DNA from: a virus | Taxonomy: Duplodnaviria; Caudoviricetes | DNA: 64,000 nucleotides | IMG/VR virus record: IMGVR_UViG_3300021255_001460 | Span: 26,107 to 90,106 of that record | Reading direction: 5' to 3' (one strand) | Part shown: piece by piece, positions 17,635 to 40,803 of the stretch | Numbering within the stretch: position 1 is the stretch's first letter | How the letters are laid out: each line of letters begins with the position of its first letter | The notes under the pieces: generated by a model | Database searches by the model: none | What the model saw: the letters and a program-made list of their open reading frames with translations, nothing else | What the model was told of the DNA's origin: nothing | Made by a program: the position numbers and the translations under genes

Positions 17635-17765
17635 AAAAAGAGCGTCAGCGTGTACCAGACGCTTGCGCTCTTATATGGTGAAAGATGTGGGGTAAGCACA
17701 TCCAACACAAAGGGAATTGTAACACATCCTTTCACCAATATCAATATATGGGAGGATGTGTTTTT

Positions 17766-19162: not shown

Positions 19163-19175
19163 ATTCATTATACAA

Positions 19176-19950: not shown

Positions 19951-19973
19951 AATTCCTATCATCCTTTCTGGCC

Positions 19974-20405
19974 TTACATATCAATAGGGGCTTCGTGTAG
20001 CTTTTCCACAAAGTCCGTTGGTACATGATTATGTCGTCCGCACTTCACGTACTGTTCGTACATGCGCTCGAGCGAACTTCTCGTATCCAGTGATATTGGG
20101 TTCTTCTTAACACCATAGTGGACGTATGCCCAAGTCAATTTTTCGTTCTGTAGCGTAGCTGTCTGCTCGTCGGTCTGTGCCAGCCGCCCATCAATCTCAT
20201 CAAGCCGCTGAACAATCTTGTCAATCTTCTCATCAATCGATTCAATGCGTCGCTGTGCTTCAAGCTTGCGCTCTGCTCTTTTTAACACCCAGTCATGAAC
20301 GGCCTCAAACGTTTTAACAGCGCCAACGACTACGCCAATCTAGGCAATTACTCCTACGAAAGCACCCCACCCAGAAGTGAGCCACTTAACTGCTTCCTCT
20401 CCCAT
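19974..20405 (-). CDS. Holin/haemolysin-like membrane protein with an in-frame TAG at codon 22 (20340-20342)
   Basis: ATG at 20405 reads MGEEAVKWLTSGWGAFVGVIA*IGVVVGAVKTF..., in frame with the track ORF 19974-20288. Confidence 0.8.
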
Positions 20406-20427
20406 TGGTGTCACCCTACCTTATCTT

Positions 20428-21285
20428 TTAAATTGCCGCTTGTAATGCTTTCAGTAGTGCGGCGGCTACTGGTCTGTCGAGTTCGAGGATTACCTTCTGT
20501 CCAAGGATCTCCTCGTCGGCTGAAACAATGTCGGGTTCTGGATCTTCAGCAGGATTCATAGTTTCCACTTCTTCCAGATACTCGCTCATGACATATCCGG
20601 TCTTACCGTCGTACTCAACAAACGACCACATAGAGTTGTGCGGTGTGGCGGTTACAATTTCGCCAGCATTGATCTTTGTCACACGGTCGGCTTTCTTGTC
20701 AGGCTTCACACGCATATTGACATAGCCGCCATTCGGTGTAGTCACTTTCATAAACATCATCTGTTCGTCCGCTTCTTCAACAGGAGCGTCATTAAATGCT
20801 TCGGGAATACCCACTCTGTTCCATCCCCCATTCTTTATAGTCTTGCCAGCAAACTTGGATTCGGCTACGCAACCCCGCGAAGAGGATGCATGAACCGCGC
20901 CAAGCCCCTGACCTGTGTAAACCCCAACGTGGCTTGCGTTGCCCTCATTGTCGTTGTAGCCTCTGACTTTCTCGCCGCCATCATCTTTCACAATGAATAG
21001 CCAAGCCCCCACTGGGATCTTTCCAAACTTTGCTTTACACTCTTCCGGTGTGCCTTTCCAAGACAGAGCGTGTCGCCACATGTCGTTTGAGCCGCGATAA
21101 TTGTGCGGCTTGCCGATCTGACGCAAACACCACTCGATCAGTCCTTGGCAGTCCATTCCAGTAAGTGAACTGCCGTTATTGACGTAAGGGATTATGCCGT
21201 CGCGGTTGCCACCATGAGCCGCAACAAAGCTTGGGTCAACCAGATTCATAGCAAAGGCGGCGAACCGTTCGTTAATAGCATCCAT
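20428..21285 (-). CDS. Endolysin (NlpC/P60-type amidase plus SH3b cell-wall-binding domain)
   Basis: MDCQGL, SHVGVY and AVHAS catalytic motifs; C-terminal VNMRVKP...WSFVEYDGKTGYVMSEYL. Confidence 0.85.
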   Translation of the reverse strand: MDAINERFAAFAMNLVDPSFVAAHGGNRDGIIPYVNNGSSLTGMDCQGLIEWCLRQIGKPHNYRGSNDMWRHALSWKGTPEECKAKFGKIPVGAWLFIVKDDGGEKVRGYNDNEGNASHVGVYTGQGLGAVHASSSRGCVAESKFAGKTIKNGGWNRVGIPEAFNDAPVEEADEQMMFMKVTTPNGGYVNMRVKPDKKADRVTKINAGEIVTATPHNSMWSFVEYDGKTGYVMSEYLEEVETMNPAEDPEPDIVSADEEILGQKVILELDRPVAAALLKALQAAI

Positions 21286-21291
21286 TGGTTA

Positions 21292-22425
21292 TCACCTCTT
21301 GCGGCACATCAACTGTCCACTATAGATATAAATCTCATATGGTGTGTTGGTGGCCTCGTCGCGGATTACAATGCCTGTGTCACCATTGATCAGGATGCCA
21401 GCGGGAGCAATCTCGTTGTCCTTGCCCACAGCCAGAACCTTCTCAACATTTCCATCAGCGGCAGTGGTCGAAAGCTTGCATTCCATCAGGTAGTCGAGCC
21501 GCTGGTTGATCTCTTCGTAGAGCGCATCAATACGTGCCTGAATTGCCGCCGCCTGAGAGTTTGCCAGCAGTTCTTCGAGTGCGGTAATCCCCTCTTCGAT
21601 TGCCAGAAGCCGCTCCTCATACTCCGCAAGGGAACTCATATCGATGTGGTGGTCGATCAGAACTTCCCAGTGTTCTGTGTCTGCATCAGGGGCTAACGCT
21701 TCATCCTCTTCGCCAACACCAGCAACCGCCGCTTTGCATAGGTACGTAATTGCATCATAGTCAGCCAGATCAAGTTCTTCATAGCTGGTAGTCTTGTTCC
21801 ACTCACCCGTATATCTTGGGCGAACTCTTCCAGCCACCTGAGTCTCGCCGCCATCAACTGTGTACTCAAGCTGTCCGTCAGCAACGCTCAGTTCCAGATC
21901 AACGTGCGGTTCTGGGAAGGTAAAGTCGAACGAAGTTGTGTCGCCGCCAATCGTGTTCGCCGCCACGCCCAATTCATCGCCAGTCTGTGCGGTTGCCTCG
22001 ATATTTGTAAGCTTTGCAATCTTGTCGAGCAATTCCTGTGCGGTTGCGATCAGCTGACCAATCGCGGTTTCCTCTTCCTGCGTACTCTCATAGCTGACTG
22101 GTTTGCTCCGCGCCACAACTGGCAACCGGATCTCATAGTAGACGGTCACGCCTTCATTGTCGGTTACCTCGAGGTACACAAATACTTGCTTGCCGCGAAT
22201 CAAAACCACATCAGGTACTGTGATCAGAATATTCGGGGGATCAACAGTAACGGCGGCTGGTACTGCGGCTTGCTGTCCGTCAAAAGCGGCTTGGGCGCTA
22301 TAAATCATATCGCTTGGAATGCCGCTCAAACTGATCTGCACACCTGTATCCCACTGATATGCGGAAGTCGAACAGGTGGCGACCGTTTCGCCATTCTCCA
22401 TGATGGCGTATATTTTCTTAGCCAT
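21292..22425 (-). CDS. BppU-like baseplate/tail protein
   Basis: YQWDTGVQI...VPDVVL...YL...EIRLPVVARSKP N-terminal pattern; located in the tail tip module. Confidence 0.6.
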   Translation of the reverse strand: MAKKIYAIMENGETVATCSTSAYQWDTGVQISLSGIPSDMIYSAQAAFDGQQAAVPAAVTVDPPNILITVPDVVLIRGKQVFVYLEVTDNEGVTVYYEIRLPVVARSKPVSYESTQEEETAIGQLIATAQELLDKIAKLTNIEATAQTGDELGVAANTIGGDTTSFDFTFPEPHVDLELSVADGQLEYTVDGGETQVAGRVRPRYTGEWNKTTSYEELDLADYDAITYLCKAAVAGVGEEDEALAPDADTEHWEVLIDHHIDMSSLAEYEERLLAIEEGITALEELLANSQAAAIQARIDALYEEINQRLDYLMECKLSTTAADGNVEKVLAVGKDNEIAPAGILINGDTGIVIRDEATNTPYEIYIYSGQLMCRKR

Positions 22426-22438
22426 AGGTATCACCTCA

Positions 22439-22804
22439 TTAAAGCGCATTCTGTGGCGGCTTTGCGTGTCGGATCACGGGTATCCTGATTTGTCGCACAG
22501 TCTTCCACTGCTTCTCGCCCACTGGGTCAAAGATGTAGCACAAAACATCAATGGCGGTCTGAAACAAGCTGTCCGGGATTGCAAACTTCAAAGTGCCGTC
22601 AGCCGCAACAGTTACGTTCTCAACCTCAAATGTTCCGTACACACCAACATTCGCTTTGGTAATGTGGGCAACGTATCTTGTCTGCGGCGCTGGAACTCCG
22701 GTCAGTTCCATCCTGACTCCGTTCTGCCACTGATAAACGGGAGCAGAGATCGCGAAGAAATCTACTCCCGTTTCAAGGTTTGTCATATCAAGTTTTAACG
22801 TCAT
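22439..22804 (-). CDS. BppU-like small tail protein
   Basis: YQWQNGVRMEL...IPDSLFQ...IRIPVIRHAKP, a paralog-like match to the downstream N-terminus. Confidence 0.55.
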   Translation of the reverse strand: MTLKLDMTNLETGVDFFAISAPVYQWQNGVRMELTGVPAPQTRYVAHITKANVGVYGTFEVENVTVAADGTLKFAIPDSLFQTAIDVLCYIFDPVGEKQWKTVRQIRIPVIRHAKPPQNAL

Positions 22805-22998
22805 TCGGCATCAACTGCCTTTGCTTCATGTTCCTTGTTGTAATTATCCAAGTACTGACCGATTGCGTTCAGGTCGTTATCAATTGCGGAAACAATGCGA
22901 CAGCTCTGAGTCCCGATTACTGTCAACTGTCCAAGCGTCTGAAGAATTGCAATGATTCCTTTTACACAATCTTTGATAGAATTAAATCCCTGTTCCAT
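22801..22998 (-). CDS. Small hypothetical tail-region protein
   Basis: SD AAGGAG; coupled ORF. Confidence 0.6.
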   Translation of the reverse strand: MEQGFNSIKDCVKGIIAILQTLGQLTVIGTQSCRIVSAIDNDLNAIGQYLDNYNKEHEAKAVDAE

Positions 22999-23016
22999 AA
23001 TCCTTGCTCCTTTATG

Positions 23017-23223
23017 TTAATCCTCAAATGTCTCAGCAATAGACTGACCAAAATTCAGAAAGTCTTGAGCCATCTTAACCTCAGAGTCTTTGGTTAGCAC
23101 AATGTTCTTTTTGATATTTGATTTCACAATACTACGTGTCGCCTCATCAATAACATTGTACGTAATTGCAACACGCATACCAGTAGGATCATTCCATGTA
23201 GTCATCGCAACTACTTTATTCAT
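23017..23223 (-). CDS. Small hypothetical tail-region protein
   Basis: SD GAGGT; coupled ORF. Confidence 0.6.
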   Translation of the reverse strand: MNKVVAMTTWNDPTGMRVAITYNVIDEATRSIVKSNIKKNIVLTKDSEVKMAQDFLNFGQSIAETFED

Positions 23224-23233
23224 AATATCAACC

Positions 23234-26200
23234 TCACATAATACCTGATGTTTGATAGTCTGGTAGTGCTTCCAGTCGTTCCATTCTTGTATTGATATAA
23301 TCCTTTTGCGGTGATTTTACTTCCCAACCAAACCGCATATTGGGTGTACCACATACAATGAAGTAAGCTGGATATCTTTCTTTAACAAAGCACATGCCAT
23401 CGTCATAGGCTTGAATAAAGACTTGATACGCACTTGTACTAATAGTTTCGGCAAATACTGGATCGAGATCAACATATGCGTATCCGTCCGCACCAATTAT
23501 TCCCTCGCCAATATCTCCAAACATTGGTGTCGGTGTTTCGTATGCGGACATAGTAACCGCGCCATAATGTTCCGTGGTAAATAATCTATTCTTCTGTCCA
23601 CCACCAACTACAGTGAAATAATGGCCTGATGGAATATTCATGGATATATCGCCGTTTTGGTAAAACCGCATGTAACACCCGGCACTCTCTGCATCCGGTT
23701 CGTCGCTATATCCAAGTTCAAATGCATTTTGGTATCCAGATACACCCTGTAAAAAACCACGATAATAACCACCAGCAATGATGTTAATCGTATTATTGAA
23801 TCCGCATCTGCCATCATTCCAAAAATACATTTGCCCACCACTAGACACAAGAGTCATCGTCATCGTGCCATCGGAACTCCATACACAACTTGATGCATTG
23901 CCAATCACCATATTCCCGGCATGGTCAATAAAGCATCCGTGGGTTTGGTTTACATTTGAGGAACGAAAAGTCCAACCAGCACTCGTTGGTGGTCGAAGTA
24001 CTGTATAACTTGTACTGCCACCAATATTGGAAGCACTATATAAGTTCCCGTATTGATCAATTGTCCAACCGCCAATCTTACCGCCAGTTGCAGTAATATT
24101 ACTACACGTAACAGCGCCAGCCGTAGTTACTTGGAAAGCACCATTCCCGATATTAATCGATGCACCACTGATAGACCCACCAGTGACAGTCAGATTGCTA
24201 CAACTCACAGCACCAGCAGTAGATACGGTAAAAGCGCCGCTACCAATATTGATAGATGTACCACTGATCGACCCACCAGTGACAGTAAGGTTTGTACAAG
24301 TAACCTTACCACTCGCAGTTACCCTGAATGGCGCTGATGCAAGTGTCGAACTACCAGCATAAATAACAACATTGTCACCAGTCACACCAGAGCGCAACCC
24401 AACACGGGAAGCACCAGTGCCGCTATATAACGTATCTGTTCCGATTGTCCAACCAGCAATACTGCCGCCATTCTTTGCGGTCATATAGCCGTTTTGGTCA
24501 ATCGAGAAACCGTTGTTAATTGTGGTATGACCAATCAAGCTGATCTTGGATGCATTAATGGTCGCACCTTCGGTTGACACATTGATCGCATTGATTACGC
24601 CGTTCTGATCAACCTTTGCCGACCACGAAGATGCGTTCTGTTCAACTGTGGTCTTTACGCCGCTATAAGTATTGTTGACGGTTTGCATGATCGACTCTGG
24701 CATCAGCCTAATAGTAGTCTGCATCCCAGTGATCGTGCTGTTCGCCGACAGGTCAATGCTTTGCCCCACACCAGCCGCCAGATGACTTGCGGTAATTGTT
24801 CCAGCTTCAATTCGCGCCGCAGAAAGATAACCAGTGATTATCTCGTCGGCACTAAAGCCTCGTCCTGCACATGATTCCATTATTACTAATGGCGTAGACT
24901 ATCTCTTAATCCACTTGGGATTCAGTGCGCTTCGACTGGTAACTCATCTTCCAGCCTACATAATAGTCGTTACACCTTCCGCTTTGTTGCGGCTTGGCAC
25001 GGTATTATCCACGAAGGACTTCACCGTTAGCAACTTACGTCACACCCCTGAGTAATAGGGTTCACACTGTTTAACCAATATGTCGCCACATTGGTGGGCC
25101 TGAACGTTGACCCAAATGTTCTCCAGTTCCAATTACCGTTTTCATCTTTGCCGTTCGCGATCATAAATCCGTCGCCGCACAACATCATCGCGGCCTCATC
25201 GTTTGCCTCGACAAACATCATGTTTCCGTTGTCGTCCGTATACCATGAAGATCTGGACGACATGAACTGATGCTTCAGCACATCGATAGTTCCTTCGAGC
25301 CGCTCAGTAAATATCGAGCCATCCATATTGATAATGTTTGTGCGGTTATAAATGTCTGCTCTTGATTGCAGTTCGCTTGTTACTTCGCTGATGCGTTGCA
25401 GTACAGATCCAAGATCCTTGCCGCTCAACGAAATATCTTCATCCGTGATCTCGATCTTGTCATCCCACGGGTGATCCATATACCGTGTAATCTTCTTGAC
25501 ATACAACAGTGCATTTACGTTCAGGATTGCATCGTAAACTCGCACCTCTGTATTAATCTCAAAGTCATAGATGTCGCGCCCCAATACCTGTGCCATGTTT
25601 GTGCGGGTCACAGAGTAAGTCACAACTGGGCGGCTCATGCGTTCCATTACATTCTGGGCATCAGCATACAGGGCGGCTTCCTGACCGACAATGTAGTTCG
25701 GATTGTTCCACTTGCCATCCTTAATCAGGTCGCCCAGAGAAGAATGCATGAAGGTAGACTCCGCATCAATCTGCTGTTGCTGAATGTTCGCCACCGCAAG
25801 CGAATTTTTATACACGGTGTAAGCCAGATCAGCCGCACGATACATGATAACTTTCAGGCCAAGTTCCTTTTCGGTTGTACTTCCCCAGCCGTCATAGATC
25901 TTATTGATCTCGGTCTGAATCTCGGCTATCTGTGCGCGGTATGTGGCTTTCTTTTCCTCACTCGCTGTTGCCGCAATCATTCGGTTCAGCGACTTGATGC
26001 TCTCCTGCTTTGCCGCAATCGAAGCTTCCATCGAGCCAACCCAGCCAGCCGATGTACCAGTACCAGACTTCGACAGGGTGGCGTATTTCACCGCATACTT
26101 GTCAGTGCTGTTAAAAGTGATAGCGCCGCCAGCACCTACGGTTACCGCACGATAAACCTTGTTCGGGCCAACTACGATAACATAGTCGCCCTCGAGCAAT

Positions 26201-27234
26201 CTCTGCTTATCGACTGCTACTTCGCCGCCAATAAACTGGTCAACGATTTGCCCATTCTGAAGCACAAACTCAACATAGTTGTATTGACCCCAGTATGTGT
26301 TTAGCTTGTTTGAGTTGGTGTTATATGTTGCAGTTGCGGCCTTAATCTGCTGGTTGAGCGAGATCCGCGAGTTAATATAGTTGTCGTAAATTACCTGATG
26401 TTCCGCAGTGAATAAGCCGATCTCTTTATAGTAGTCGAAGTTCATGAGGAAGTTCAGCCCAGTCGGGTTCACTTCATCAATTCCGACATACCCATCGTCG
26501 CCATACTCGCCCTCAACATACAGGCGGGTAATGATATCTTCCGTATTGTACGAAACAGTCAGTGCGGTCAGGTCGCGCCCAATAGCCATCTCACGAAGAT
26601 CGTTGCGGTTCTCCATACACTTGAAGGCAACAGTCTTCTTGTCGGTGTCCGCGATCAGATAACCATTGAACAGTTCGCACAGGGTTACCAGTAACTTGTA
26701 CGCCCCAACGCCGCCACTCATATCCAAGCTTCGGATCTTTTCGGTTGTGCCGTCAGCTTCGTAGAATGTATCGGTTTTGGTAGTGTCCAGCGTCCACCCA
26801 GTTCCGTTAAGAATATCGGTGGCGAGATTCGGCAGTGTATCAATACCAGTTTCGTCGCCGTCATATTCTTTGTAGATCTGCTTGGTTCGCAACTGAGAGA
26901 GTAAAGTGGTACAGGTAACAGACTCGCTGATCGCCTTATCACTTCGCGTCTTCTTTGGGATGTGAATGATGAACCATACGTTGCGGTCACGTTCAGTAAG
27001 CCGCACCAAGTATTCATTCACCACAAAATCCCAGCGATGGTTGCGCGATCCATCTGGTAACCTGTACGGCATGTCAAACCTTAATGTTTCCCAAGCTTCG
27101 TAGTCGGATGTGTATTCGATGTTGTACGCTTGTCCGGGCGACTGTACTTCGGAATCGTAGAGGTCGCACACTTTCTCGCGGTTAAGGTTGAATATGCTTA
27201 ATGTACACTTTGGATATTCGTTTAGTTGTGCCAC
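23234..27234 (-). CDS. Tail tip/Tal-like endopeptidase-domain tail protein, split by a group I intron (exons 27234-25110 and 24867-23234; ~1252 aa)
   Basis: Splicing joins NWNWRTFG to SGRGFSADEIITGYLS in frame. The N-terminus has the prophage tail endopeptidase pattern ITRLYVEG; the C-terminus has Gly/Thr-rich beta repeats. Confidence 0.85.
24868..25109 (-). ncRNA. Group I intron (242 nt, no ORF)
   Basis: P1: exon UGGGU pairs with IGS GCCCA, with U.G at the splice site. Core elements GCTAACGGTGAA, AATACCGTGCCAAGCC, TGTAACGACTA and GAGATAGTCT are present; terminal G; P10 with CAGGACG. Confidence 0.9.
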
Positions 27235-27246
27235 TTGCCCACCCCC

Positions 27247-28332
27247 TTACCGCATCAGGCCATCAAAGGTGATGGTAAGTTTGGACAAGCTGGCATTTCC
27301 AGATCCGCTCTGCCCGGTAATGTTCTGCGTAGACACAATGAGTTCATTCATCTTGCCGACCAGACAAACATCGCCCTTAGTTGCTGGCATGTTCGCGTTG
27401 ATTGTACAAGAGCCGCCATCATCAGCTACCGCCAGAATCTTTCGCCAAGCGCCCTGTACGTAAATGTAACTGCCTACATCTTCTGGGAAAAACTTCGCGG
27501 TTGTTTTCAGCAAAGCAGATCCTTGAGCGCAGATCACATAAATGTCGCGCCTGTACGGGAAGCAAGGCTCAAGATTGATGTACCCTTTGTCGTGGTATGC
27601 AAACGCATAGTTCGAGCCAACCGTGATCTTCTGGTACTTACTGTCGATGACCAGATCCTGACCAGAGGGCAACCCGACAATTTCGCACGTATCATTGTTG
27701 GCGCTGTTTACGATCACAAGTTTACGGCCTGTCGGAATTGTTCCGCGCACAGTAATGGTCGCCGGGGTTGGCTCAGTGCCGGGATTCCACACAAGCTTTG
27801 TACCCATTGCAGTTGACACGGCTGGGATCATGGAGTGGCGAAGTATGCCGCAAAAAGATTCGATGCGGTACTCGTCTACCTCGTTGTCAGTGAGTTCCAA
27901 CGTGTTCATTGTGCCGAATGGATAATACGCCGTCAGGTTGAGCGTGATTGTGCCGCTATACACTGTGAGCAGATTACGGTTCGTGTGTTCCTGATAGCGG
28001 TCGCCAGTGGGCAGTTTGCTAGGCCGCACCATGTAGGTGATCCAAGGGCGCTCGTCAAAAACCAGTTCGCCCAGTACGCCAACGTGAACCCACTGGTAAA
28101 TCTTGTCAAGCTGTGCATCGGTCAGGTCTTCAAAGTAGCAGTACAAGCTGAAGTCCTTTTGCTGAACGGTCGCCCCATTATAATAAGCGCCGGGAAAGTT
28201 TGTTACTGTTGCTGTGTTCACTTTGTACGGTGTGCCAGCATCCAGCAATGTCTTGGAATTGGGTATATAGGTCTATCCCATCTCGGTACAGTGGATGCCG
28301 CGAAAAGTAAACCCCATCACATCCGCTTTCAA
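27247..28332 (-). CDS. Distal tail (Dit)-like protein with an in-frame TAG at codon 20 (28273-28275)
   Basis: Reads MKADVMGFTFRGIHCTEMG*TYIPNSKTLLDAG..., in frame with the track ORF. GFTFxGxH is the usual Dit N-terminus, and the gene follows the tape measure gene. Confidence 0.85.
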
Positions 28333-28338
28333 TGGTCA

Positions 28339-28599
28339 TCACCGCCTGTTGGTATTTAAATTAATGCCCTCAATTTCTGCGCGGCGCTCCAGAATTCCAA
28401 GCAGGTCATCCATCACGCTCAACTGATACTCCAGCAAATTGTAAGGGCAGTTTGGTTCAAAGTTCAGTTCGTTGCGACGGTGTCGATTCAATATCACTTT
28501 CATCTTGTCGGCACGTATCCGCAACTGCCAGTATTCCGCACGAAATCGATCACGATAATCATCAGATAACATCAAATCCACAGTGTCTTGTAATTTCAT
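28339..28599 (-). CDS. Small conserved phage protein (crAss001_48-like)
   Basis: DTVDLMLSDDYRDRFRAEYWQLRIR...CP..LL..QL..M..YL.ILERRAEIEGI-type pattern; SD AAGGAG. Confidence 0.65.
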   Translation of the reverse strand: MKLQDTVDLMLSDDYRDRFRAEYWQLRIRADKMKVILNRHRRNELNFEPNCPYNLLEYQLSVMDDLLGILERRAEIEGINLNTNRR

Positions 28600-28624
28600 G
28601 ACGCTTCGCTCCTTTTGCCTCAAT

Positions 28625-28656
28625 AAAAAGGGAGAGGCGCGAAGACCCCTCCCTTT
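28625..28656 (-). terminator. Hairpin/terminator after the tape measure gene
   Basis: On the minus strand AAAGGGAGG-GTCTTCGCG-CCTCTCCCTTTTT. Confidence 0.55.
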
Positions 28657-28673
28657 ATATAATATCAAATAAA

Positions 28674-31600
28674 TCAGTTGAATCTGATGCCGCCAACAGA
28701 CATTCCCTTCGACATATCTGCCACAATGGAATCCTTGACACGGGTGGCAACTTCTTCAAAGTCCGCATCATCATTCAGGGTGTCAACCTGTACGATAATG
28801 TCGCCCACATTAATTGTGTTCGCCGTAGTGTTTGTGCCAGCCAGACCGCCAAAGGAAGGAAGCTGGAAGTGCATCATGCCGATGGTGTCGAGCATATCGT
28901 TCAGCGCCTTCAAGCTGTTGGAGCGGTCGGCGTTGATCAGCAGTCGAGTCAGTTCCGCATCGTTGATACTTTCCGGGTTCGTCTTTGTGCCGTCGAGCCA
29001 AGCATAACCTGTGCGGTCAATCAAGCCGCCAGATGCATAAGCACGATGTGTATTACCCATTGCACGAGCCGCCACAGAAGCAACAGCCGACACAATGTTT
29101 GTGCTTGTGCGTTCAACCGCTTGATTTACCATATTACTAAGCCACCCGCCACCGGAACTCCCGGACGAATTTGCGTTGTTGGAATTTGTAAACCGCGAGA
29201 ATGCTGTACTAACTGTTTCTGGATTCGCTTGGTTAACTGTCCGGCTAATACTACTCAGGAAGCCACCGCTACCAGAACTACCAGACACAGGCGTTGTGTT
29301 AACACGATCCTGCGTCTTTCTCGGAATATTATAAGCACGAACATAGTCAGCAGAAACAACACCGCCACCGGGCAGATTCTTGTTACGCCAATTCACACAT
29401 TCGGTCTGACTTGCTGGGCCATAATACCAATACTTGTCATCCACAACATAGAATTGCCCATTGCTATCAGCAAGCATAAACAGGTCGCTACCCTGTCCAA
29501 GATGGTTAATTGTTCCAGAACGGATAGGCACTTGAGAAGTTGTCGGTTGTCCATTGCCTCCAGATCCTCCTCTGCCTCCACCGCCGCCAGATCCACCAGT
29601 CGCAGATGCCGCCGCCGCACTAGCAGAAGCCGCCGCAGACTGTACCTGACTCAATGCCTGAAGCGCGGTATTGGTGAATTCCATCAACTGCTCTGTTGGG
29701 AACATATCGATGTATGCTCTTCTCAGATTCTCAATAGCATCCTGCCAGCCCTGTGTCATCAGTTTCTGTGCATAGCTATTGGCTTCAAGGAACTCCTGAC
29801 TGTTCTCCTGTAGGAACTGTATGATGTAGTCGCCGCCCTTGGAGATGATCTCTTCAACCTCATCCCAGTTGGTCTTAATGATGCCAAACATTTTTTCAAG
29901 AGTTTCTGTCCAACTATCAGAATACTCTTTCTGCATGTTGGCGGTCGCCTTAATATACTCTTCGTCGTTCGCTTTAAGCCACTCGAGGATTTCGGTCATA
30001 GACATCTTCATGATATTGTTGACTTCTGCCTCAAAGTTCCTCGGATCTTTCAGCAGTTCCTCATAGTAGCTTTCGATGTAATCCGCATAGTCTTCAAGAG
30101 ATTCAACCTTTTCTGTGATAGCTTCCTGCTGGGCTTCAACTTCCTGTTCAGCCGCATCCCAAGCGATTTCTTCCTGAAGTTCCGCAATCTCTTTGGCAAT
30201 CTTCTGGGCATCTTTGGCGCGGGTCGGGTCAGCAGAAATACGAGCGTACTGTGCCTGTAAGTTGGACAGTCGCATCGCTTTGTCTTCCTGTTCAGCAAGC
30301 TGTTTGCGCTTGTTCAACTGGTTGGTCAGTTCGGAAGACTCTTTGTTCAGCGCCTTGATACGGGTGTTGGTGGTTTCAAGGATCTCGTCGCGCTCTTTCT
30401 CATAACGCTTCATGACCACTTCGAGGATCTTTTCTTCCACCTCACGCGATGCTTCAAACGCTTCTTTCTCGCGTGCTTTCCGGTCTTCGATTGCCGCATT
30501 GATGGTGTCGCGCAGGTCGCTTTCCATCTGCCAGATCTGTTTGCGGTATTCCTTGATAGCCTTTTCGTTGGCCTTGATCTGGGCGGTGTTCTGAAGAATG
30601 GCTTTGTTATAGTCGGCGTACTTCTTTTCAAGTTCGGTCAGGCGCGATGCAACGGAGTCATAAACTTCGCTGTTCGCATCTGTGCTGGCGAGTTCGGCTT
30701 TGGTTTCGTCAATCTTGGATCTCAGCTGATCCATATTGCTCTGGTAAACCTCAGACTGTTTTGCCAGCCACTTGTTTTCTTCGGTCAGAGTATTGATTAC
30801 GCCAGTGAGATAACCTTCGTCAGCCCAAGATTTTTCAATAATGCCAAGTCGGTCGAGCAGATCTTTAATGGCATCGATCTCATTGTCGATACTATCAAGA
30901 AAGAGTTTTTGTCTCCTACTTGCGGCTTCTTCGGCTTTCTGTGCTTCTTCAGCGGCAATTTCTTCGGCAGTCTTTTTAGTACCACCACCGCCTCCACCGC
31001 CACCTCTCTTGCCAGTGGTTGTCGCTGTTTCGTTATTATTTTTCTTACTACTTGTTGCCGATGCGGCTTTTGCGGCAAGACCTGTTAACCTACTAGTCGC
31101 GCTACCACCACCGCCGCCATTCACAGTCGCAGTCACCAGTCCATTAGCATCAACACCAATCCTCACGCCGTTCAAAGACATAGCCTTGTTCAACAGATTG
31201 GCAAGCGCAACCTCTGCTTCGGTGGCTGTGGATTTCATTCTGATAAAACCGTTTGTAAACGATGACGGGTCAAATCTTGTGCCAGCCATGTTCACCAAAG
31301 CCTGTGTTAAGACTTGGATGGATGCTCGGACTTGTTCGGTTTGCCCGTTCAGAATCTGAAGCGCAGTGTCAAGGTTATTTTTGACAGAATCGGCAGTCAT
31401 ACCAGTTACGGATGCCAGAAGCGAATATGCACTGGTCATTTCCTTGGTATCAGCCCCGGCATTCGCAGTGACATAATCCAAAGCTTCATATGCTCGTCTT
31501 AACTTGTCGGACTGGTCAATCATCTTTGCCATCGCTTCGGTAAATGTACCCTGATCTTCACCAGCCGCACTAAAAGCTGTCGCATACTGTTTGATAATCT

Positions 31601-34600
31601 GTCCACTTGCACCAAGCTTATTTAAATCCATCTGAGCAATCTGCTTGGCGAATCTTGACAAATCCTCTTCGCCATCTTGTAGTGCCTTACGCAGATCTTC
31701 GATAAAATCGTCGGTAATAACACCAGCACTCTTCAAAGATTTCTGCGTTGCTTCATCAAGTTCATCATAAGCCTTAATCAACCCACGGGCTTCTTCTGGC
31801 GACTTCATGGCTTCAATGATCTGCTGATAAGAATTAATCGCCACACGACCAGAGTTTACCCACTGCTGGTTGACGGTATTGAGCGCAGTACCCATACGCT
31901 TGGTTGCGTCCTCAACACCCTGACTCATCTGGGTAGATACGGTACTGAAGTCGTAATTGTTAATCTTCTCCTGAAGCTGATCAAGCCACACAACCAGCGG
32001 ATGATCCTCGCCAAGATATTCACGCATCATATCAATCGACTCGAGCCATGCGTTCAGCTTTTCGATAAGCATCGTATAAATGCCATCGAGATTACCTTCA
32101 ACATCTTCGGTATCGATTTTAAATTCAGATGCAAGAAGTTTTTGCGCTTCCTGTAATTCCTTGGCAGAAGCAATACCATCGCCCTGTGCTTCTGAAATCA
32201 GTTTCCATGCATCGTACAATCTTCCAAGTTTTGCCGCCCCAGCTTCCGCATCCATTTGTAGCGGCACAAAACTTCCAATCTCATCGTTGCGGTGTTCAAA
32301 GAGTGCATATAATTCATCGACAAATTCGCCAGCATCATTTAGTGCCTCGGCCTCTGCATTATGAACATCAGCTATGGCGGTCGAGAAATCTGTCGCGCCC
32401 TGTACCCAAAGCACCTGAAGCTTACGGATAAAATCTTCGGTCAATCCGGTCGCGCTCAAGAAGGTTTTCTGCTGTTCTTTTGTGAAGTTATCATAAACTT
32501 CAAGCACAGCCGCCACACCTTCACGAGAACCAAGACTTTCAGCAAATTCTCCGAAGAAGTCCACATTTGCCTTACCTGTGGTATTGTTCGCGGTTGCCGT
32601 CATCAGAGTGGAAAGGTTATTCAGACCGCCGTAATTCTGCGACTGAGTTTTAACCGCATCACCAAATGATATGCCAGCCAGTTCCTCGAATTGGTCGATC
32701 AGTACTTGTAGATCTCCAAGTGTTGCGCTATCTGGGGCAATCGAGTTAACTATTTCTGAGAATTCGGTTAGCTTTTCTTTTGCTCCATCAACCTTCAGAC
32801 CAATCAAGCCAAAGACTTCATCAAGATGCTGTTCCACATATTCCTTATCCAGCCCAAGAGCATCGGCAATTGTTTTGTACCTTGCCTCGTCCGCTTCCTT
32901 ATTTGCAAGATGATCTGGCGCGGTGAGTTCCTGATATGCCTTTGCCGCCTCAATGATCTTATTGTAGTCCTGACGGATTTTTTCAAATGCCGCCGTATAC
33001 TCTACTTCCTTCTTCGGGTCGAGACTCAGCGTAAAGGCTTCGGCAAGAGACTTATTATCAGAACCCATCTTACCATACAGTTCGAGGCGGTACTCATTCA
33101 TCTGCTTGATGAACTCGTCAAAGTTTACTTCGCCATGTTTGAAAGAAACTTCCAGCCCCTTGATCCAGTCATCCGTAATACCAGTCATGGACTTGAATGT
33201 CTTGAGTGTTTCTTCATCCATTGAGCCAAAAGCACGAATCAAAGCCTCCGCGCCAGAACGATCCTGTAATGCTTCGTTCATGATACGCCATGCATCTTCG
33301 ACATCTTCGGTATCAACCGCAAACTTATCAGTGAAGACATTCAGGTAGCTAAGAATCTCGCTTGTCTGATCCTGAAGTTCTGCGTTGTGTTTTTCTGCGA
33401 TAGTGTAGAACTCTGCATTATCCAGCAGATCATTCATGTCGTCGATAAACTCAGCCACAAGACTGTTTTGATCGTAATCTTCAGAGGCAGTAAATGCATC
33501 GTTCAGTGCTTCGACAGAATCAACAGTCTGATTATACTTCGCAACCAAGACATCCAGCGCTGGTTCAAGGTTGTTCTTGAGATTATCCGCATCAAGTCCG
33601 GTAACAGTAGATAGTGTCTTATAAGCTTCTTCAAGTTCGCTACCAGACAAAGCATCTTCCTTGATATTCTTGTATGCTTCCCATGCCTTAACCAGTGTGG
33701 CAAAATCAGCTTTCTGACCTTCCATCAATGGATACAATTCAATGATATTCTGGTTGCCGCCAATAGTATCACGATTATCAAAGATGTCGCTATAGCCTTT
33801 GAGGATGTCGCCACTCTTGGCACGAGCCGCCAGAGATTTTGCAGGACTTGCTTCCTCGTCCGGGTTCGCACCGTCAATCGCGCCTTCGCCATCCTGCACT
33901 GCTTTATCGACAATATCGGCAACCTTCGCCACAGCAATCCCGTAGATCTCGCTATAGTCCTGTGCGATCCGATTGTATTCATCGACATCTGCCTGAGTTG
34001 CTCCTTCGGCAGTGGCTTTCTTGTAAGCTTCGTCAACCATCTGCCAACGGTCACGCTGGAGATATCCTGCATCAGCATATGCGTTCTGGGCATTCTGGCT
34101 GATCTGCGTAACAGCATCAATTGCCTGTCGCGCCCTTGCTTTCAGGCCGCTGTCAAGTGTGTAATCAAATCCATCAATTACGCTCTGATACTGCTGTTTG
34201 TATCCTTCTGCCAACCACTGTGGAACGTTATCCAGATCAAGGAAGTTGCTGAATATATCACGCACTTGGCCTTTCAGATCTTCCTTCTGCCGCTCCAGAT
34301 TAGCAAGGTCAGATACGGTCTGCATGTATTCTTCTTGAGCATAAGAGATATTGCTGTTATTCCAATAGTCCTGATTGTTGATGGCTTCATGATGTGCATT
34401 ATCTTTAATCCACTGATCAAATGTGCCGCCATAATTGAAAGCCATATTGCCGCTTGTCCAAAGATCATACTCCTTAAAGATCTTGGAGAAAGCGTCAATA
34501 TCAGTACCTCTCCTGAACCGTTCAAGAATATCCTCGCCGTATGCTTCCTGTAGTGCCGCCGCATAGTTATCGACGAACTGATTCATGTCGGTATAATAAC

Positions 34601-37385
34601 GTCCATGAGCAGTGGGAATTTGATCTTCCTGCCGCCTGATCTTACTGGCGGTTGCGTCGATGGTATTCAAGGTTTCATAAGCGGATCGTTTCGATGCCTC
34701 TTTTTGTAGCCGCAGATTTTCAGCAAGTGATTCGTTCAGCTTGTCTACCATATCTTTCTGGTAGCTATACTTATCACCAATATTCTGCACACCGCTGGTA
34801 ATACCGGGAATTAATCCTTCAAGAGCCGCATAAATTTCATTCAGCTTTTGCTGATCTTCTGCGGTCTTGTCTGTTTTCTTGGAAAGTTCTTCATACTCAT
34901 CGCGAAGTGCGACAATAGCGTCATTTTTCTGTGCAAATTTTTCCTGTTCTTCTCTTGCGTCACTAATACTATTTTTAATGTCAGACAAAGACTGATCAAT
35001 ATCTTCGCTACGGTCGGCAATTTCCGTTTCAGCACCGCCAACCATTCCGATCAAAGAAGAGAACAGCGCAATCATCGCACCAACACCAGCCGCAATCATT
35101 GCATACGGATGGCCTGTGGCGAAGTTAATAATTGTGTCGAACAAGTTAAATGATTTGTGAGCATTCAGGAAAGTTACTAAAGATCCAATCAGACCAATGA
35201 GAACCGGGAGCGCGATATTCAGTCCACCAACAGCGCTGGTCACATCGAGGAAATCGGTGGCAAGATCAAGCAATCCCTTAGTGATTTCTGGAATGTGGAA
35301 GGCACTATATAGTTTTTCCAACGAAGCCTGAAGTCTACCTTGTGCCGCCGTAACTGATTCCTGCCAGACCGCGAAAGACTCAGTTGTGGTATTGGCACTA
35401 TCCATTGCGATTTGATATAGTGTCAGTGCGCGAGAAACTCCGTCTACACTTTCAGCCGTCTTTGACAAATCTTCCATCAAGCCGATAAAGAAGTTCTGTC
35501 CACGAGTACCAGCCATAACTGTAGCCAGATAGGATCGGGTCTTGCTATCCATGTCTGCCCACTTTTCACCGATCTCGTTAAACACTTGGCCCATCTTACG
35601 CCACTTGCCATTCGCATCCATCAGAGCAATACCCTGTGTGGCAAGTGCTTTTGTAACATCATTCAGTTTGGTTTCGTCATCACTATTGAAACCAGTCTGC
35701 TTGATCTGACGCATACGTGCCAGAATTGTGTTCAGCGCAGTACCGATAGATTCAGGGGCAAGACGAGTACGCTCGGACAATGTGGCAATCCAAGAAGACA
35801 ATTGCTCAAACGATACACCAGCATCAGATGCAACACTCGCAACCTTCTGCATTGCGGTTGCCATTTCAGCACCACTCGTTGCGGCGGCGTTTCCCATTGC
35901 GATAAACGTATCTGTGACATGTTCGATATTAAGTCCAACTTGTCCTGTGGCATCATCAACCCAACCGGAATAACCGTTCAGAGTTGCAGTCAAAAGTTCT
36001 GAAGCTTCGTCAAAATTCATCTTGGTAACCTTTGCGAACTCGGTTACCCATTTAAGTCTGTCGTCAACTTCATCATCACTCAAGCCCTGACGATAGAATG
36101 TAATTGCCGCTTCAGCAATCTCTTTGCTACTAACATTCATCTCACGAGCCATATCGCGATACTTAACAGCCAGTTCGTCTGCGGCTTGTTGGTTCATACC
36201 AGTAACCACACGAATTTCGTTCATCTGGTCATAGTATTCGTTAGCATATTGGGTTGCTTCCTGCCACATTTTTCGCAGAAGATTTTGGGCGGCATGAACA
36301 CCAATCTGCACCAATGATGTAAGAATCTTGTCAGCCAGCGTGGTGGTGACCGTTAGTTCAGAATTCGCGTCGGCAAACTTACCCCTGAGATCTGTGGCAT
36401 AATCGCCTGACTTGCGAATATAGTCAGCTTCCAGTTGAGTATTATCAGCGCCAGCATCAACAAGCGCATTAATCTCGGCTTCTACACCCCTCAACTGTTG
36501 TGCATAATGATAAGACTGTTCAATAGCCGCAGAACGTTTTTCTTCACTCGAAGATTCGGAATGTCCAACAGCATCTGCGGATGACATTTTCTTAAAGTAT
36601 TCAAGACGCTGTTTGTATAGTTCGTTAAGCCGCCTCTGATTGGCGATCTCATTTTGTGTAGCAGTTGTGTCGGCTTGCTTAGCCCTGACCAAAGCGGCTT
36701 CCTGCTCATATGTTCTGTTCAGCTGTTCAAGTGCATTGCGCTGTGTTTCAGTCAGAGTGATGTTCCGGGATCTCTGCTCATACTCCGCACGTAAAGCATC
36801 TGCCTGTGCATGTAAGGCCACAATAGAATTTGCATCTTTTGATGGATCAAGTTTTGCGGCCTGTAATTCATATGAGTTGATTTGCTTCTGGAGACTCAAC
36901 AACTGCTGATATTGTTCGACTTGCCTTTTGGAGGCTTCAGTTGCGGCCTTTTGATCGGCAACCTGTGCTTTGATTTGCTCAGTACGAGTCTGTCCTTTTG
37001 AAACAAGTTCCGCAAGTTGAAGCTTTTCTTTGTCATTGAACTTGATGCTATCTACAATCAGATTAACAATAGCACCTAACTTCTCCGCTCTTTTTTGTAG
37101 CGCTTGCAGTTCGCTGGCATTTGTCTCAGCACTTAACCGCGCATTCTGAGCAGATATGTTATTAAGTTCGGACAAAACCTTCTTGAGTTCATTATAAGCG
37201 ATAGTGGCTTCCTTGGCAGACTTTGCCGCGCCAGACTGGTTACCCATATCAGCGATTGCACCATCAACGCCACTGATCTACCCTTTGATTTTGTCCATCT
37301 GTTCTGCGGTGAACGATGTTGCACTAACTAGCGCATCATGTAATGGTTTCCAGTTAATGACTAGTTCGCCAACATTAACAGCCAT
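28674..37385 (-). CDS. Tape measure protein (~2903 aa) with an in-frame TAG at codon 36 (37278-37280)
   Basis: Strong SD GGGGAGGG and ATG at 37385; MAVNVGELVINW...DKIKG*ISGVDG is in frame with the 2857-aa track ORF. TP901-type TMP core (AITFYRQGL, ATSGAEMATAMQK, ESIGTALNTILAR). Confidence 0.92.
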
Positions 37386-37441
37386 AGGTTATCCCTCCCC
37401 TAGTAAAACAAGAAAAAGGGGGTTGTTACACCCCCTCATAA

Positions 37442-38086
37442 TCAGTTAACTTTGCGCGGTTTCAGGTCGATAACATTGCCAGCAGTGCCAACAACTCTTA
37501 CACCATTCGCCTTTTTCGCTTCGGTATTCTTATTAGGAAGGCTATTAAGGACTTCCATAACATCGATCATCCGTTCAGTCAGCCCACTCTGATCTGCAAG
37601 CTGTGCCGCAACATCTGGATTGTCAAACACAAAACCAAAACTCTTCATAAAATTGTGAGACAGACTATGCCGCGACATAAATGTAGAAACGACAACAGTG
37701 CGAACATCAAAAACATTTTCCATGCATATCGATTCATCCTTGATCACCGCACAAATCTGTTCTGCGATTCCACTCGACCAAAGATAATCATAAACCTTGT
37801 CGCACTCTTCAGCGTTATTGATATCAAACTTGATGTTTGTATAATACTCGGCATTAAGCAATGTCCGCATCATTTTCTCGTTCGTGAAGAAACATTCGCC
37901 AATATCGTCGTCCTCAGTAATGGTTCTCGCACAATATTCGACTGCGTACTGCTCACGCTCTTCAGGCCGCAACATTGTGCGAACCTTGATCTCATTGCCG
38001 TTGTTATCATAAATGTCTACTGTTTCAGTATACTTTTCTTCCAGTTTATCGAGCGGAAGCACAACATTCTTTTCTTCCATCGCCAT
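37442..38086 (-). CDS. Hypothetical tail-region protein
   Basis: SD AGGAG; 214 aa. Confidence 0.7.
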   Translation of the reverse strand: MAMEEKNVVLPLDKLEEKYTETVDIYDNNGNEIKVRTMLRPEEREQYAVEYCARTITEDDDIGECFFTNEKMMRTLLNAEYYTNIKFDINNAEECDKVYDYLWSSGIAEQICAVIKDESICMENVFDVRTVVVSTFMSRHSLSHNFMKSFGFVFDNPDVAAQLADQSGLTERMIDVMEVLNSLPNKNTEAKKANGVRVVGTAGNVIDLKPRKVN

Positions 38087-38101
38087 AATCCTATCTCCTT
38101 C

Positions 38102-38904
38102 TTACTTAACAACGCCGCCGAAAATGGTGGCAAGCTGTTGCTGGGTTTCGCCATTCTTCTTGTTCTTTGTCTGAGCAAGCGGATACTGTTCCTGCACAAT
38201 CTTGCTGGAGTCCTCAACAGAATAGTTGGAGTTGCCAACAAGGTTGACATATGCTTCGTACATAAGTTTATGTCCAAGGTGGGTCAGGATGTCGTCGAAG
38301 AAATCAAAGTGCATGTTATTGATCTTCTCTTCATCGACGCAACCCAAGTGGACAGCAACGACGGCGACTGCCTCATCGAGTGTCAGCGCACCGCCTTCTG
38401 ACTCCCCTGTTTTTTTAGATTTTCACGCTTCTCGTCGATGCGGTTGACTCGCTTGTAAATCTTGAGAATCTCTTCAATCGTATCCGTATCGAGATTGTTA
38501 TACTCGCGCTTTACAAGTTCCTCGTCATCGGTAACAGCCACAAGCCAGTTGAACAGTGCGGTGTCGCCATCGCCCCAGCCGGGAAGTTCGGTCACAAAAA
38601 GTTCTGGGAGCGGGATCTGTTCAAGTACCAGATAGAAGGCCGCAAGATTGCTCCGCTGGTAACCAACTTTGGTGGACTTAATTTCAATGGGTGTGTTGCC
38701 AAACAGTACTGTATTTTCAGGATGCTTGAACTTCTGGACTTCAGGCATCTCTTTATTTTCTTCTGTCTTTTTGGGAATCGGCTTGTCGGTCTTCGCAGTT
38801 TCGGGAAGTTCTTTTTTCACTTCTTCAACTTCTGGAAGTGCTTTAGCTGTCGCGTTAGCTGTCGCGTTAGCCGCCGATCCACTTACCTTTTTCCTTGCCG
38901 CCAT
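38102..38904 (-). CDS. Tail assembly chaperone G (38383-38904) and its -1 frameshift extension GT (to 38102)
   Basis: Slippery A-AAA-AAA at 38410-38416. The -1 frame reads KTGESEGGALTLDEAVAVVAVHLGCVDEEKINNM... into track ORF 38102-38347. It sits between the tube and TMP genes. Confidence 0.8.
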
Positions 38905-38980
38905 AATTATCTCCTTATTCCAAAATAACCCCCTGTAGGTTTTAAGTACAGGGGGTTAGTTATTACCTTATGGTATCTGA

Positions 38981-40803
38981 TTACCAGTCAACTGTGCTGG
39001 CGCTGGACTTGGTTACCATGTCGCCCTTGTTGTCGAAAGGCTCAAAAATCATACGGTTGGTACGCTTATCAGCACGTTTCGGGTCGATAACAGAGAAGGT
39101 AATGCTGTTGGTTGCATGAGACTTGTCATTGATCTTCAACATGATTCGCTACGTCATGTCCGCTTTTCAGCCGCTATGTGTCACCACATATGATGAGACT
39201 ATATCTTCACCCTCGCATCTCAGCGTAGGGGTCTTCCCATTTCAGCTTCGCTTGAAGCTTACTCTACTCGCTTCTTCCTGCATATCCTTGTATGCATTCT
39301 GCTTTCGATAGTCGTTAGGCTTTTATAAAACATCATCAACATATTCCCAATGGTAACCGCCACATTTATATCCGGTCTTACAAGCCCTCGTCAGATTGCC
39401 TCGCGACACATTATATTTTGTAGCGGCATCAACCATAGTATAGAAAACTTCGTTGGTTTCAATACAACGAATTGTTCGATGACAAGTAGCAATTACTTGT
39501 TCAACCGTCTTTGCTTTGAACTCAGCATCCTGCCATCTTGCTGTTGCCTGTTCAGATCTTCGTTTGCGTTTTTCTGGATCTTTCCAAGCACTCTTCATTC
39601 TCCGCTTCATATCATCTTTATACTGCGGATCACTCCATTGACGAATCAAATTGTCAATGTTTGGAATGTTCCCGCCGCCACTTATATTGTAGCCATACTG
39701 ATGATCTGTTGCGTTGAATTGAGTAATCAGTTCAATTTCCTTGCGGCAAGCTTCGTCGTATGTCAACCCGGTATATAAAATTTTGTGATCAAAATTTTCC
39801 CACCCATATTTCTGAATTGCTTTCCAGAACTATGTGCAAGACTGATATCGTTTACCATCAGATCCCCAACGATGTGTTGGTTTCTGACAAGTAATACCAA
39901 TATACACCTTACCATTAATACGATTGGTATGTTGATAAACTATATACTTCTTATTCACTTGTACCCCTTAATAACAAGTGATGATGTTTTACTTCAGCAC
40001 GGTAGGTTTTCTTTACACTGCAACCTATGGTGTAAAGACGTTCCCCGTTTAAGGAAGATATTTTTCATAAACATTACTGTTTACGCAACCTGTTTTGTTA
40101 AGCTGTTGTCGAATCCGGGAGCGGCGGTAGCACGTACCTTGTAGAACAGCCAGTGGAGCATACCCTTGAGAGTAGCTTCGGAGCAGTCCGTGCCGCTGGA
40201 GTACAGAGGCCAGTGAGCAGTCAGAGAACCCTTTGCCATCGTGCTGTCGGTGTACTCGTTCAGTTCGTAGCCATTCACAACCCGGCGGGTATAGAATACA
40301 CGGAACTCATCGCCAACCGCAACATCGGAAGCATTGAGTGTGATCTCGGTCTTGCCAGCAACTTCAGCAGTAGAAGCAGTGATAGCAACCTTGAACTTGC
40401 CTTCTGCGGCGGTTTCCTCTTCGGTTTCCTCAAGTCCGCGAATATACACAGAACCAGCTTCAACCTCGAACGGCAGTACGACCTTCGGGCCAGTCTCAAC
40501 CTGAACCAGCGTGGCTTCATCAACACCAGCGTCAACAACTTCGATTTCAGCGTTGTTCGCCATCATGAAGATATCCATCGTGAACAGAGAAGAAGCGAAG
40601 GTAATTTCAACAGTCTTATCAGTTTCGATGTAAGCCAGCGGCAGAGACTTCTGACCACCAGTGATAGTAACGACGTTATTGGTACGACTGATAGATGCGG
40701 TGTTCACTTCGTCAAAATGGAAGTGTACACCATCACAACGAGTAAAGTCCTAGTCAGGGTTATCAACAATATAACCCTCATACTTGGGAATATAAATCGC
40801 CAT
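38981..40803 (-). CDS. Major tail (tube) protein, exons 40803-40101 and 39126-38981 (~282 aa), with an in-frame TAG at codon 18 (40750-40752)
   Basis: SD GGGAGG; reads MAIYIPKYEGYIVDNPD*DFTRCDG.... Splicing gives APGFDNS-Y-KSHATNSITFSVIDPKRADKR...VDW*. Confidence 0.85.
39127..40100 (-). mobile_element. Group I intron (974 nt) carrying a homing endonuclease
   Basis: P1: exon CAGCU pairs with IGS GGUUG. Core elements TTAAACGGGGAACG, AACCTACCGTGCTGAAG, CTAACGACTATCGAAAG and GAAGATATAGTCT; terminal G at 39127. Confidence 0.92.
39323..39958 (-). CDS. GIY-YIG homing endonuclease (C-terminal NUMOD1-like domain) with an in-frame TAG at codon 43 (39830-39832)
   Basis: GTG start; YIVYQHTNRINGKVYIGIT...RW...CT*FWKAIQKYGWENF...EIELI...YGYNISGGG; C-terminal CKTGYKCGGYHWEY. 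Confidence 0.88.

Follow-up and report, generated by a model that had tools for sequence, protein, structure and literature searches.

What does the codon TAG mean in a phage that carries it, in frame, in ten of its genes? The phage is known from one 90,106-bp IMG/VR record (IMGVR_UViG_3300021255_001460; Duplodnaviria, Caudoviricetes), linear and without terminal repeats, of which we analysed positions 26107-90106, a stretch of 64,000 nucleotides (nt) that we call the window. Besides the ten genes, the window holds a putative suppressor transfer RNA (tRNA) with the anticodon CUA, tRNA(CUA). We consider it likely that the phage reads TAG as leucine by means of this leucine-type tRNA of its own, probably as a gate on its late genes. 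Leucine instead of glutamine had been proposed in an earlier note on this DNA from five short contexts; all five are found in the sequence, and the proposal is supported, less by them than by the features of tRNA(CUA) and by 19 of 19 related lineages that carry in-frame TAGs.

TAG-bearing genes and the residues at their TAG positions

The ten genes are given below with their window coordinates and strand and the place of the TAG, which is an asterisk in the quoted contexts.

1780-2385, + strand: RuvC-like resolvase; TAG is codon 24 of 201 (1849-1851); Pfam RuvC, E = 3e-10
52197-53390, - strand: metallophosphoesterase; TAG is codon 3 of 397 (53382-53384); Pfam Metallophos_2 and Metallophos
48568-50313, - strand: large terminase (terL); TAG is codon 7 of 581 (50293-50295); TAG also in the related locus L029
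46941-48548, - strand: portal; TAG is codon 55 of 535 (48384-48386); 40-54% identity to the portal of relatives
42049-43056, - strand: YomX-like virion gene; TAG is codon 68 of 335 (42853-42855); 40% identity to the related locus L003 over residues 3-330
40081-40803, - strand: tail tube of the YomU_Tube type; TAG is codon 18 of 240 (40750-40752); context DNPD*DFTRCDG
39323-39958, - strand: GIY-YIG endonuclease; TAG is codon 43 of 211 (39830-39832); context CT*FWKAIQKYG
28674-37385, - strand: tape measure; 2903 codons with the sole TAG at codon 36 (37278-37280)
27247-28332, - strand: Dit, the distal tail protein; TAG is codon 20 of 361 (28273-28275); context GFTFRGIHCTEMG*TYIP; Pfam Sipho_tail; TAG also in L028
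19974-20414, - strand: holin-like; TAG is codon 25 of 146 (20340-20342); context AFVGVIA*IGVVVGAV; TAG also in L028

Each gene has exactly one in-frame TAG, every TAG lies within the first 68 codons, and eight of the ten are virion, packaging or lysis genes. TAA and TGA are absent in frame from all ten, and no frameshift interrupts them. Ahead of the TAG, the tube, phosphoesterase, Dit, portal, GIY-YIG and YomX-like proteins can be aligned with the N-termini of relatives. In the resolvase the TAG stands three residues ahead of the Asp that aligns with position 5 of the RuvC profile (matches from a PDB search with this protein stop short of the N-terminus), and in the holin-like protein it falls within the only predicted membrane helix. 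Genes are tightly packed when the extended, pre-TAG starts are used; the terL ATG, for example, overlaps the stop of the preceding gene (50310-51203) as ATGA. Because the same TAGs are kept in the independent assemblies L005, L006, L028 and L029 at 95-99% identity (L028 is a 51-kb contig at 95% nucleotide identity; the tape measure TAG is kept in L005, L028 and L029), they are neither errors nor recent damage. As a terminator of credible open reading frames (ORFs) of at least 100 amino acids, TAG is used 2 times, against 48 for TAA and 40 for TGA.

Some assignments are firmer than others. The tube has 183 homologues, most of them with PF27173, and is about 60% identical to PF27173 carriers; the window protein itself has no Pfam match at E <= 0.01. 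The GIY-YIG match (E = 6e-4) is below threshold, at 20.5 bits for a curated cut-off of 22.6. Its gene is flanked by the tube and the tail-assembly genes; in L003 the corresponding place is taken by a homologue (54% identity) whose TAG is at another codon. A search with the Dit protein returned nothing but a truncated near-identical form. The earlier note placed its contexts between 20340 and 40752, an interval that indeed opens on the first base of the TAG in the holin gene and closes on the last base of the one in the tube gene; its resolvase context, TL*CLDLS, lies outside that interval, at 1849-1851 on the + strand.

The meaning of the codon is clearest in the relatives, which were assembled as 57 related loci and reduced to 37 lineages at 90% identity. 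(A locus search with the tube protein alone gave nothing; an alignment query did retrieve loci.) In twenty lineages, the window's group included, the aligned late genes contain 3-27 in-frame TAGs, against only 0-3 in-frame TAA or TGA codons per lineage. Leucine is the majority residue in 95 of the 154 columns in which at least one lineage has TAG, and makes up 49% of the pooled residues at TAG columns against a background of 7.6% (6.5-fold), while glutamine stands at 0.4 times its background. Many TAG columns are leucine-invariant, such as portal 78, 108, 255 and 298 and terL 49, 90, 248 and 304. When the log-odds are taken per lineage, leucine comes first in all 19 recoded relatives (+5 to +45 nats), with glutamine at -4 to -64. 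The scoring separates leucine from isoleucine, since it named the correct residue in 398 of 400 control draws at Q, I, L, Y, S, K, E, V, M and F sites. Two relatives that appear to have Q at leucine columns of the phosphoesterase alignment have TAG codons there, translated with code 15. These alignments show TAG to be read as leucine in the relatives.

The window's own TAG columns are less decisive. The residues opposite the TAG are Ile 87, Leu 21, Val 4 and Met 3 in the tube, Leu 53, Ile 25, Phe 8 and Met 1 in the phosphoesterase, Leu, Val, Cys or Ser in 18 loci in Dit, Leu 3 and Phe 2 in the resolvase, Ile in the single homologous lineage of the holin, and Ile or Val in a gappy region of the YomX-like protein; the GIY-YIG column is variable (H/N/A/Y/K). 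At the tape measure and terL sites the alignment is too poor for use. The earlier note had proposed aligning each TAG position with homologues; summed over the eight usable columns, this gives (in nats) Leu +0.1, Ile -0.2, Val -5.3, Ser -11.1, Lys -13.1, Gln -14.8 and Tyr -14.9. As aligned, the window's columns thus reject glutamine and the other common suppressor residues. The note's view that its quoted positions are hydrophobic holds for the tube (I/L/V/M), Dit (L/V/C), the resolvase (L/F) and, from one lineage, the holin (I), and fails for the GIY-YIG gene (H/N/A/Y/K). Of the contexts that it set aside, those of the tape measure and terL align too poorly for use, the phosphoesterase column (L53/I25/F8) is informative after all, and the portal aligns on polar residues (D/S/E/N/C).

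The same tube column, 18, also has TAG in three other lineages (L036, L041-L044 and L049), and portal column 55 has TAG in L039, in lineages about 50% identical; the closest relatives have Ile or Asp at these columns. Either recurrent placement or old polymorphism would account for the shared columns.

The suppressor tRNA and rival meanings of TAG

The suppressor and the signals predicted around it are as follows.

52066-52163, - strand: suppressor tRNA(CUA), 98 nt; Rfam RF00005 at 44.8 bits (gathering threshold 29) over the full model, 1-71
52177-52205, - strand: promoter-like site, GTGAAA, 17 nt, TATATT, from a consensus scan; ends about 14 nt before the tRNA 5' end
51234-51273, - strand: strong terminator-like hairpin of 16 pairs with a T run behind it, from a pattern match only; lies between the tRNA unit and gene 50310-51203

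The tRNA begins 34 nt downstream of the phosphoesterase gene and is the sole tRNA of the 90-kb contig. Its anticodon loop, UUCUAAA, gives the anticodon CUA; it has A73, a G1.U72 pair, A14-A15 in the D-loop and an A15:U48 pair, and CCA is not encoded. The predicted fold (z = -3.7) is a cloverleaf whose extra arm, about 28 nt long, has a 7-bp stem. ARAGORN reported no tRNA in the window or the whole contig, which we take as a false negative because the extra arm is long. When the tRNA was compared with GenBank phages by blastn, nothing matched beyond the T arm of T4-like tRNA-Leu (E = 0.3), which is not used as evidence, and exact matches to the anticodon arm in IMG/VR fell at nine loci, none with a tRNA, and were discarded as chance matches. 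Promoter-like sites of this kind are no commoner in the region than in shuffled sequence, and the one upstream of the tRNA is a lead only. No release-factor gene was found in the 78%-complete contig.

In Escherichia coli the identity of tRNA-Leu lies in A73, the A15:U48 pair and two nt between A15 and G18G19, while tRNA-Ser and tRNA-Tyr have G15. Across the family, tRNA(CUA) is present in every recoded relative whose tRNA region was examined, often as the sole tRNA or among tRNA-Leu genes, except in G029, a 21-kb fragment (18% complete) with six tRNAs, none of them CUA. All 17 distinct tRNA(CUA) of relatives have A73, U48 and an A14-A15 D-loop, as do 10-11 of the 12 tRNA-Leu of these phages, whereas their tRNA-Ser have G73 (9 of 11), G15 and mostly C48, and the single tRNA-Tyr has G15. 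Several of the relatives' suppressors are canonical tRNA-Leu bodies with the D-arm GGCGGAAYUGGCA. Extra arms in the family run from about 5 nt to the 28 nt of the window, a spread that fits a charging enzyme that ignores the arm, as E. coli leucyl-tRNA synthetase (LeuRS) does. In its acceptor, D-loop and T arm the window tRNA is closest to the 76-nt suppressor of G010/L039: G1.U72, U8-A9, a D-loop of AACGGC and the T arm are common to both. G010/L039 is a complete 119-kb relative and has the clearest leucine signal, its 25 TAG sites scoring +30.5 for leucine and -54.8 for glutamine.

E. coli LeuRS does not read the anticodon and relies on A73 and the tertiary core, which is the basis of the supP suppressor. 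Charging of the phage tRNA(CUA) with leucine by the LeuRS of the host would be expected for this reason, and we infer it for the window tRNA from its sequence features. UAG would then be read as leucine in competition with release factor 1. For the window phage itself, the leucine call rests mainly on the tRNA features together with the family, because five of its own columns resemble random positions.

Several observations weigh against leucine. The window tRNA is atypical as a tRNA-Leu, with the D-loop AACGG and one nt between A15 and G18G19 (the G010 suppressor likewise has one, and other relatives have two, AAUUGG or AACUGG), and its extra arm of about 28 nt exceeds that of every relative. 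A contig from the sheep-gut run X6 replaces 161 bp (window 52034-52196), the whole tRNA included, with 1335 other letters. With the contig 78% complete by CheckV, the rest of the genome may hold other tRNAs or factors. Polar residues (D/S/E/N/C) occupy the portal column, where leucine is found in 0 of 30 lineages. Taken alone, the aligned window columns neither prove leucine nor separate it from isoleucine: five sites (tape measure 36, GIY-YIG 43, tube 18, YomX-like 68 and portal 55) score -6.7 for leucine, where random N-terminal positions have a mean of -7.0 and true leucine positions +5.9 (sd 2.6), with 0 of 2000 draws as low. By this comparison the window's TAGs occupy aliphatic or freely variable positions and not old conserved leucine codons, a placement that fits nonsense codons fixed where leucine is tolerated. 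The suppressor locus varies between strains; X16, a contig from an RNA library, diverges at 52053 as well. Parts of the region are covered by such contigs, which does not amount to evidence of transcription.

Four relatives, L086 (G004), L087 (G019), L083 (G020) and L089 (G021), have tRNA(CUA) and no in-frame TAG in the aligned late genes; either their TAGs are elsewhere or the suppressor precedes recoding. In two places in relatives (L018:177-263 and L071 c[2365-2453], in G010) ARAGORN reports long-armed UAU tRNAs of 87-89 nt labelled Ile, candidates with an unusual arm. Some tRNAs of relatives with the leucine anticodons CAA, UAA and AAG are only 75-77 nt, without a long arm (L017:889-964, L019:7484-7637, L018:98-174 and L079:786-860). 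Bacterial tRNA-Leu normally has a long extra arm.

Among the alternatives, the one that survives best, though we regard it as improbable, is that tRNA(CUA) is charged by seryl- or tyrosyl-tRNA synthetase (SerRS, TyrRS), with TAG meaning serine or tyrosine. The extra arm is unusually long, and it is this arm that SerRS and bacterial TyrRS use; A73 and U35-A36 would also suit a tRNA-Tyr, and tyrosine amber suppressors such as supF are effective. The D-loop spacing of AACGG is shorter than in canonical tRNA-Leu, and Ser is among the portal column residues and Tyr among those of the GIY-YIG column. However, the column totals are -11.1 for serine and -14.9 for tyrosine against +0.1 for leucine, and the phages' own tRNA-Ser (G73, G15, C48) and tRNA-Tyr (G15) differ from the A73 and A15:U48 of the window tRNA. 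The homologous short-armed suppressor of G010/L039 decodes leucine columns, and arms of about 5 to 28 nt across the family fit a synthetase blind to the arm.

A glutamine reading of TAG under genetic code 15, which crAss-like, Lak, Garnet and phAss-1 phages use, appears very unlikely here. In the openly searchable literature, phages are credited with no TAG reassignment other than glutamine; the database gene caller translated these genes with TAG as Q, and the single relative aligned at the tape measure site has Q. Despite this, glutamine occurs in 0 of 119 residues at the tube column and 0 of 87 at the phosphoesterase column (TAG-derived Q removed), and at neither the Dit nor the resolvase column; it scores -14.8 nats in the window against +0.1 for leucine, and -4 to -64 in the relatives. 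Nor is tRNA(CUA) of the glutamine type, given its extra arm, A73, A15:U48 and likeness to the phages' tRNA-Leu.

We find it hard to credit that the TAGs are real stops, with internal starts or in decaying genes of a defective prophage: each gene does have a standard-code ORF downstream of its TAG, the TAGs are few and five fall on unconserved positions, but the residues ahead of the TAG are conserved family N-termini in the tube, Dit, phosphoesterase and resolvase, the TAG stands just before the profile-position-5 Asp of the resolvase and splits the sole membrane helix of the holin, in-frame stops are only ever TAG, without frameshifts, the TAGs persist across independent assemblies at 95-99% identity beside a matching tRNA, and the tight gene spacing (the terL ATGA overlap) requires the extended starts. 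Two further candidates were rejected. Isoleucine ties with leucine on the window's columns and was set aside on the relatives' columns and on the dependence of isoleucyl-tRNA synthetase on the anticodon; pyrrolysine, which is ARAGORN's label for any CUA tRNA, was dropped on the standard cloverleaf with its extra arm and on the leucine columns, no search for pyl genes having been made.

A possible gate on late genes and the dual meaning of TAG

If TAG is read as leucine, its position in the genes becomes of interest. None of the ten window TAGs is beyond the first 20% of its gene (Fisher combined p = 2e-5), and in the relatives 42% of TAGs are within that fifth against 16% of leucine codons. 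A TAG no more than 68 codons from the start would, without the suppressor tRNA, allow only a short N-terminal peptide to be made; once the suppressor became abundant, full-length late products would follow and the whole late programme would be opened. The extreme 5' position of the TAGs suggests a suppressor-dependent gate, and we infer both this function and the timing of the tRNA. It is quite possible, though we hold this more tentatively than the leucine reading, that the gate is a dedicated amber one, in which virion assembly, packaging and lysis hinge on one phage tRNA as the safety catch of a temperate phage, and in which a tRNA-Leu body has been freely remodelled. Such remodelling, with arms from about 5 to 28 nt, would be open to the family's suppressors because LeuRS ignores both anticodon and arm.

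In E. coli, amber suppression is favoured by a purine directly after the codon; in the ten genes that base is A in 6, T in 2, G in 1 and C in 1, a small sample.

TAG has two meanings in this one genome, as it still terminates early genes. Both credible ORFs that end in TAG are early-strand genes. The first belongs to the integrase family (L001:7728-9770, + strand, in contig coordinates) and ends in the TAG at contig 8724-8726. Behind this stop come AAAGGAG and, after a further 11 nt, the ATG of a separate AAA_24 gene, 18 nt on and in the same frame. Read-through of this TAG by the suppressor would give a 680-amino-acid fusion with AAA_24. The second is in the window.

5873-6196, + strand: early-strand ORF with TAG as its stop, backed up by a TGA in frame four codons on (tandem stop)

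This dual meaning resembles the temporal code-switch model proposed for code-15 phages.

Known recoding systems and the phage in context

Gut phages that read TAG as glutamine with code 15 and carry their own tRNA-Sup(CUA) include crAss-like, Lak, Garnet and phAss-1 phages (bioRxiv 10.1101/2021.08.26.457843; PMC9523058; PMC10607447), and in phAss-1 TAG is read as glutamine. Among phages whose code differs from that of the host, the Borges preprint saw only TAG-to-Gln and TGA-to-Trp, and a survey of theta ribozymes predicted tRNA-Sup isotypes for Gln, Trp, Ile and Tyr, with Leu not among them. A full-text literature search, which covers subscription journals poorly, found no report of TAG-to-Leu in phages. 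Like the code-15 phages, the window phage has a CUA suppressor tRNA, encodes no synthetase, concentrates its TAGs in virion, packaging and lysis genes and keeps its integrase and early genes without in-frame TAG; for the code-15 phages a role in the timing of lytic genes has been proposed. Unlike them, it would use leucine and not glutamine, with a tRNA-Leu-type body, and its recoding is sparse, with one TAG per gene no more than 68 codons from the start and with TAG still an early-gene stop. We see here a variant form of the stop-codon recoding already known in phages, one in which the amino acid is new and the pattern of TAGs unusually sparse and 5'-placed.

The NCBI codes 16 and 22, of chlorophycean and Scenedesmus mitochondria, also read TAG as leucine. 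Codon and meaning are the same, but those codes apply to the whole organelle and have no evolutionary link to the phage, which would impose leucine on a host probably using the standard code, and in some genes only. In E. coli supP, too, a tRNA-Leu body with a CUA anticodon inserts leucine; such suppressors are lab-selected, single-mutation derivatives of cellular tRNAs, whereas this one is a natural and conserved phage gene family with arms of about 5 to 28 nt.

Databases already hold Q at conserved leucine positions for the window phage and its relatives, and pipelines that handle TAG assume glutamine; a wrong Q corrupts alignments, families and predicted structures. About ten TAGs per 90 kb would evade screens based on coding density, and the genes would be called N-terminally truncated. 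TAG-to-Leu, if true, joins TAG-to-Gln and TGA-to-Trp as a third phage route from stop to sense, and a LeuRS blind to the anticodon would be open to exploitation by a phage. With its TAGs so close to the gene starts, the phage offers a clean test of whether temperate phages use recoding for timing or as a safeguard. Nor is the family rare: it is widespread in gut metagenomes, those of ruminants among them.

The + strand holds replication and recombination genes plus a tyrosine integrase, and the - strand holds the late block, which runs from about 57,000 down to 19,200 in the order phosphoesterase, a 297-amino-acid gene, terminase, portal, head, tube, tape measure, Dit, tail, endolysin and holin. 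The unnamed 297-amino-acid gene directly before terL is probably the small terminase.

17685-18764, + strand: tyrosine integrase without TAG; Pfam Phage_integrase, E = 2e-33; adjoins the lysis end of the late block

The integrase marks the phage as temperate, and in the close relative L028 an integrase is likewise positioned after the lysis genes. The window belongs to a temperate siphovirus whose genome would be about 115 kb and whose virion genes are probably of the SPbeta type; the phage comes from the ruminant gut and probably infects Clostridia. GenBank phages (50,697 records) include no close relative; the closest TerL among named phages is that of Clostridium phage c-st (29.5% identity), followed by phiCD211-like, Tsamsa-like and SPbeta-like phages. 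The tube, head and YomX proteins of the relatives match Pfam families derived from SPbeta (YomU_Tube, YonB and YomX_C), and the nearest GenBank terminases are those of SPbeta, c-st, phiCD211-like and Tsamsa-like phages. Unlike the SPbeta-related siphoviruses, for which the literature searched reports no recoding, the phage stands apart at a TerL identity of only 24-30%. Metagenomic relatives number in the hundreds, at 45-60% protein identity, and are uncultured phages of about 100 kb from animal guts. Relatives have been binned with metagenome-assembled genomes of Clostridia, a weak pointer to the host that carries no evidence on the host's code. Runs from 13 studies of sheep, bovine and other animal guts contain DNA near-identical to the window's.

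Upstream of the window, the contig also has a group I intron (Rfam RF00028, 60 bits) at L002:1386-1673 on the + strand, which is contig 20386-20673. It splits a gene for a DnaE-type DNA polymerase III alpha subunit, whose exon ORFs lie at contig 19082-20452 (PHP, DNA_pol3_alpha) and 20878-22701 (DNA_pol3_alpha, finger, HHH_6).

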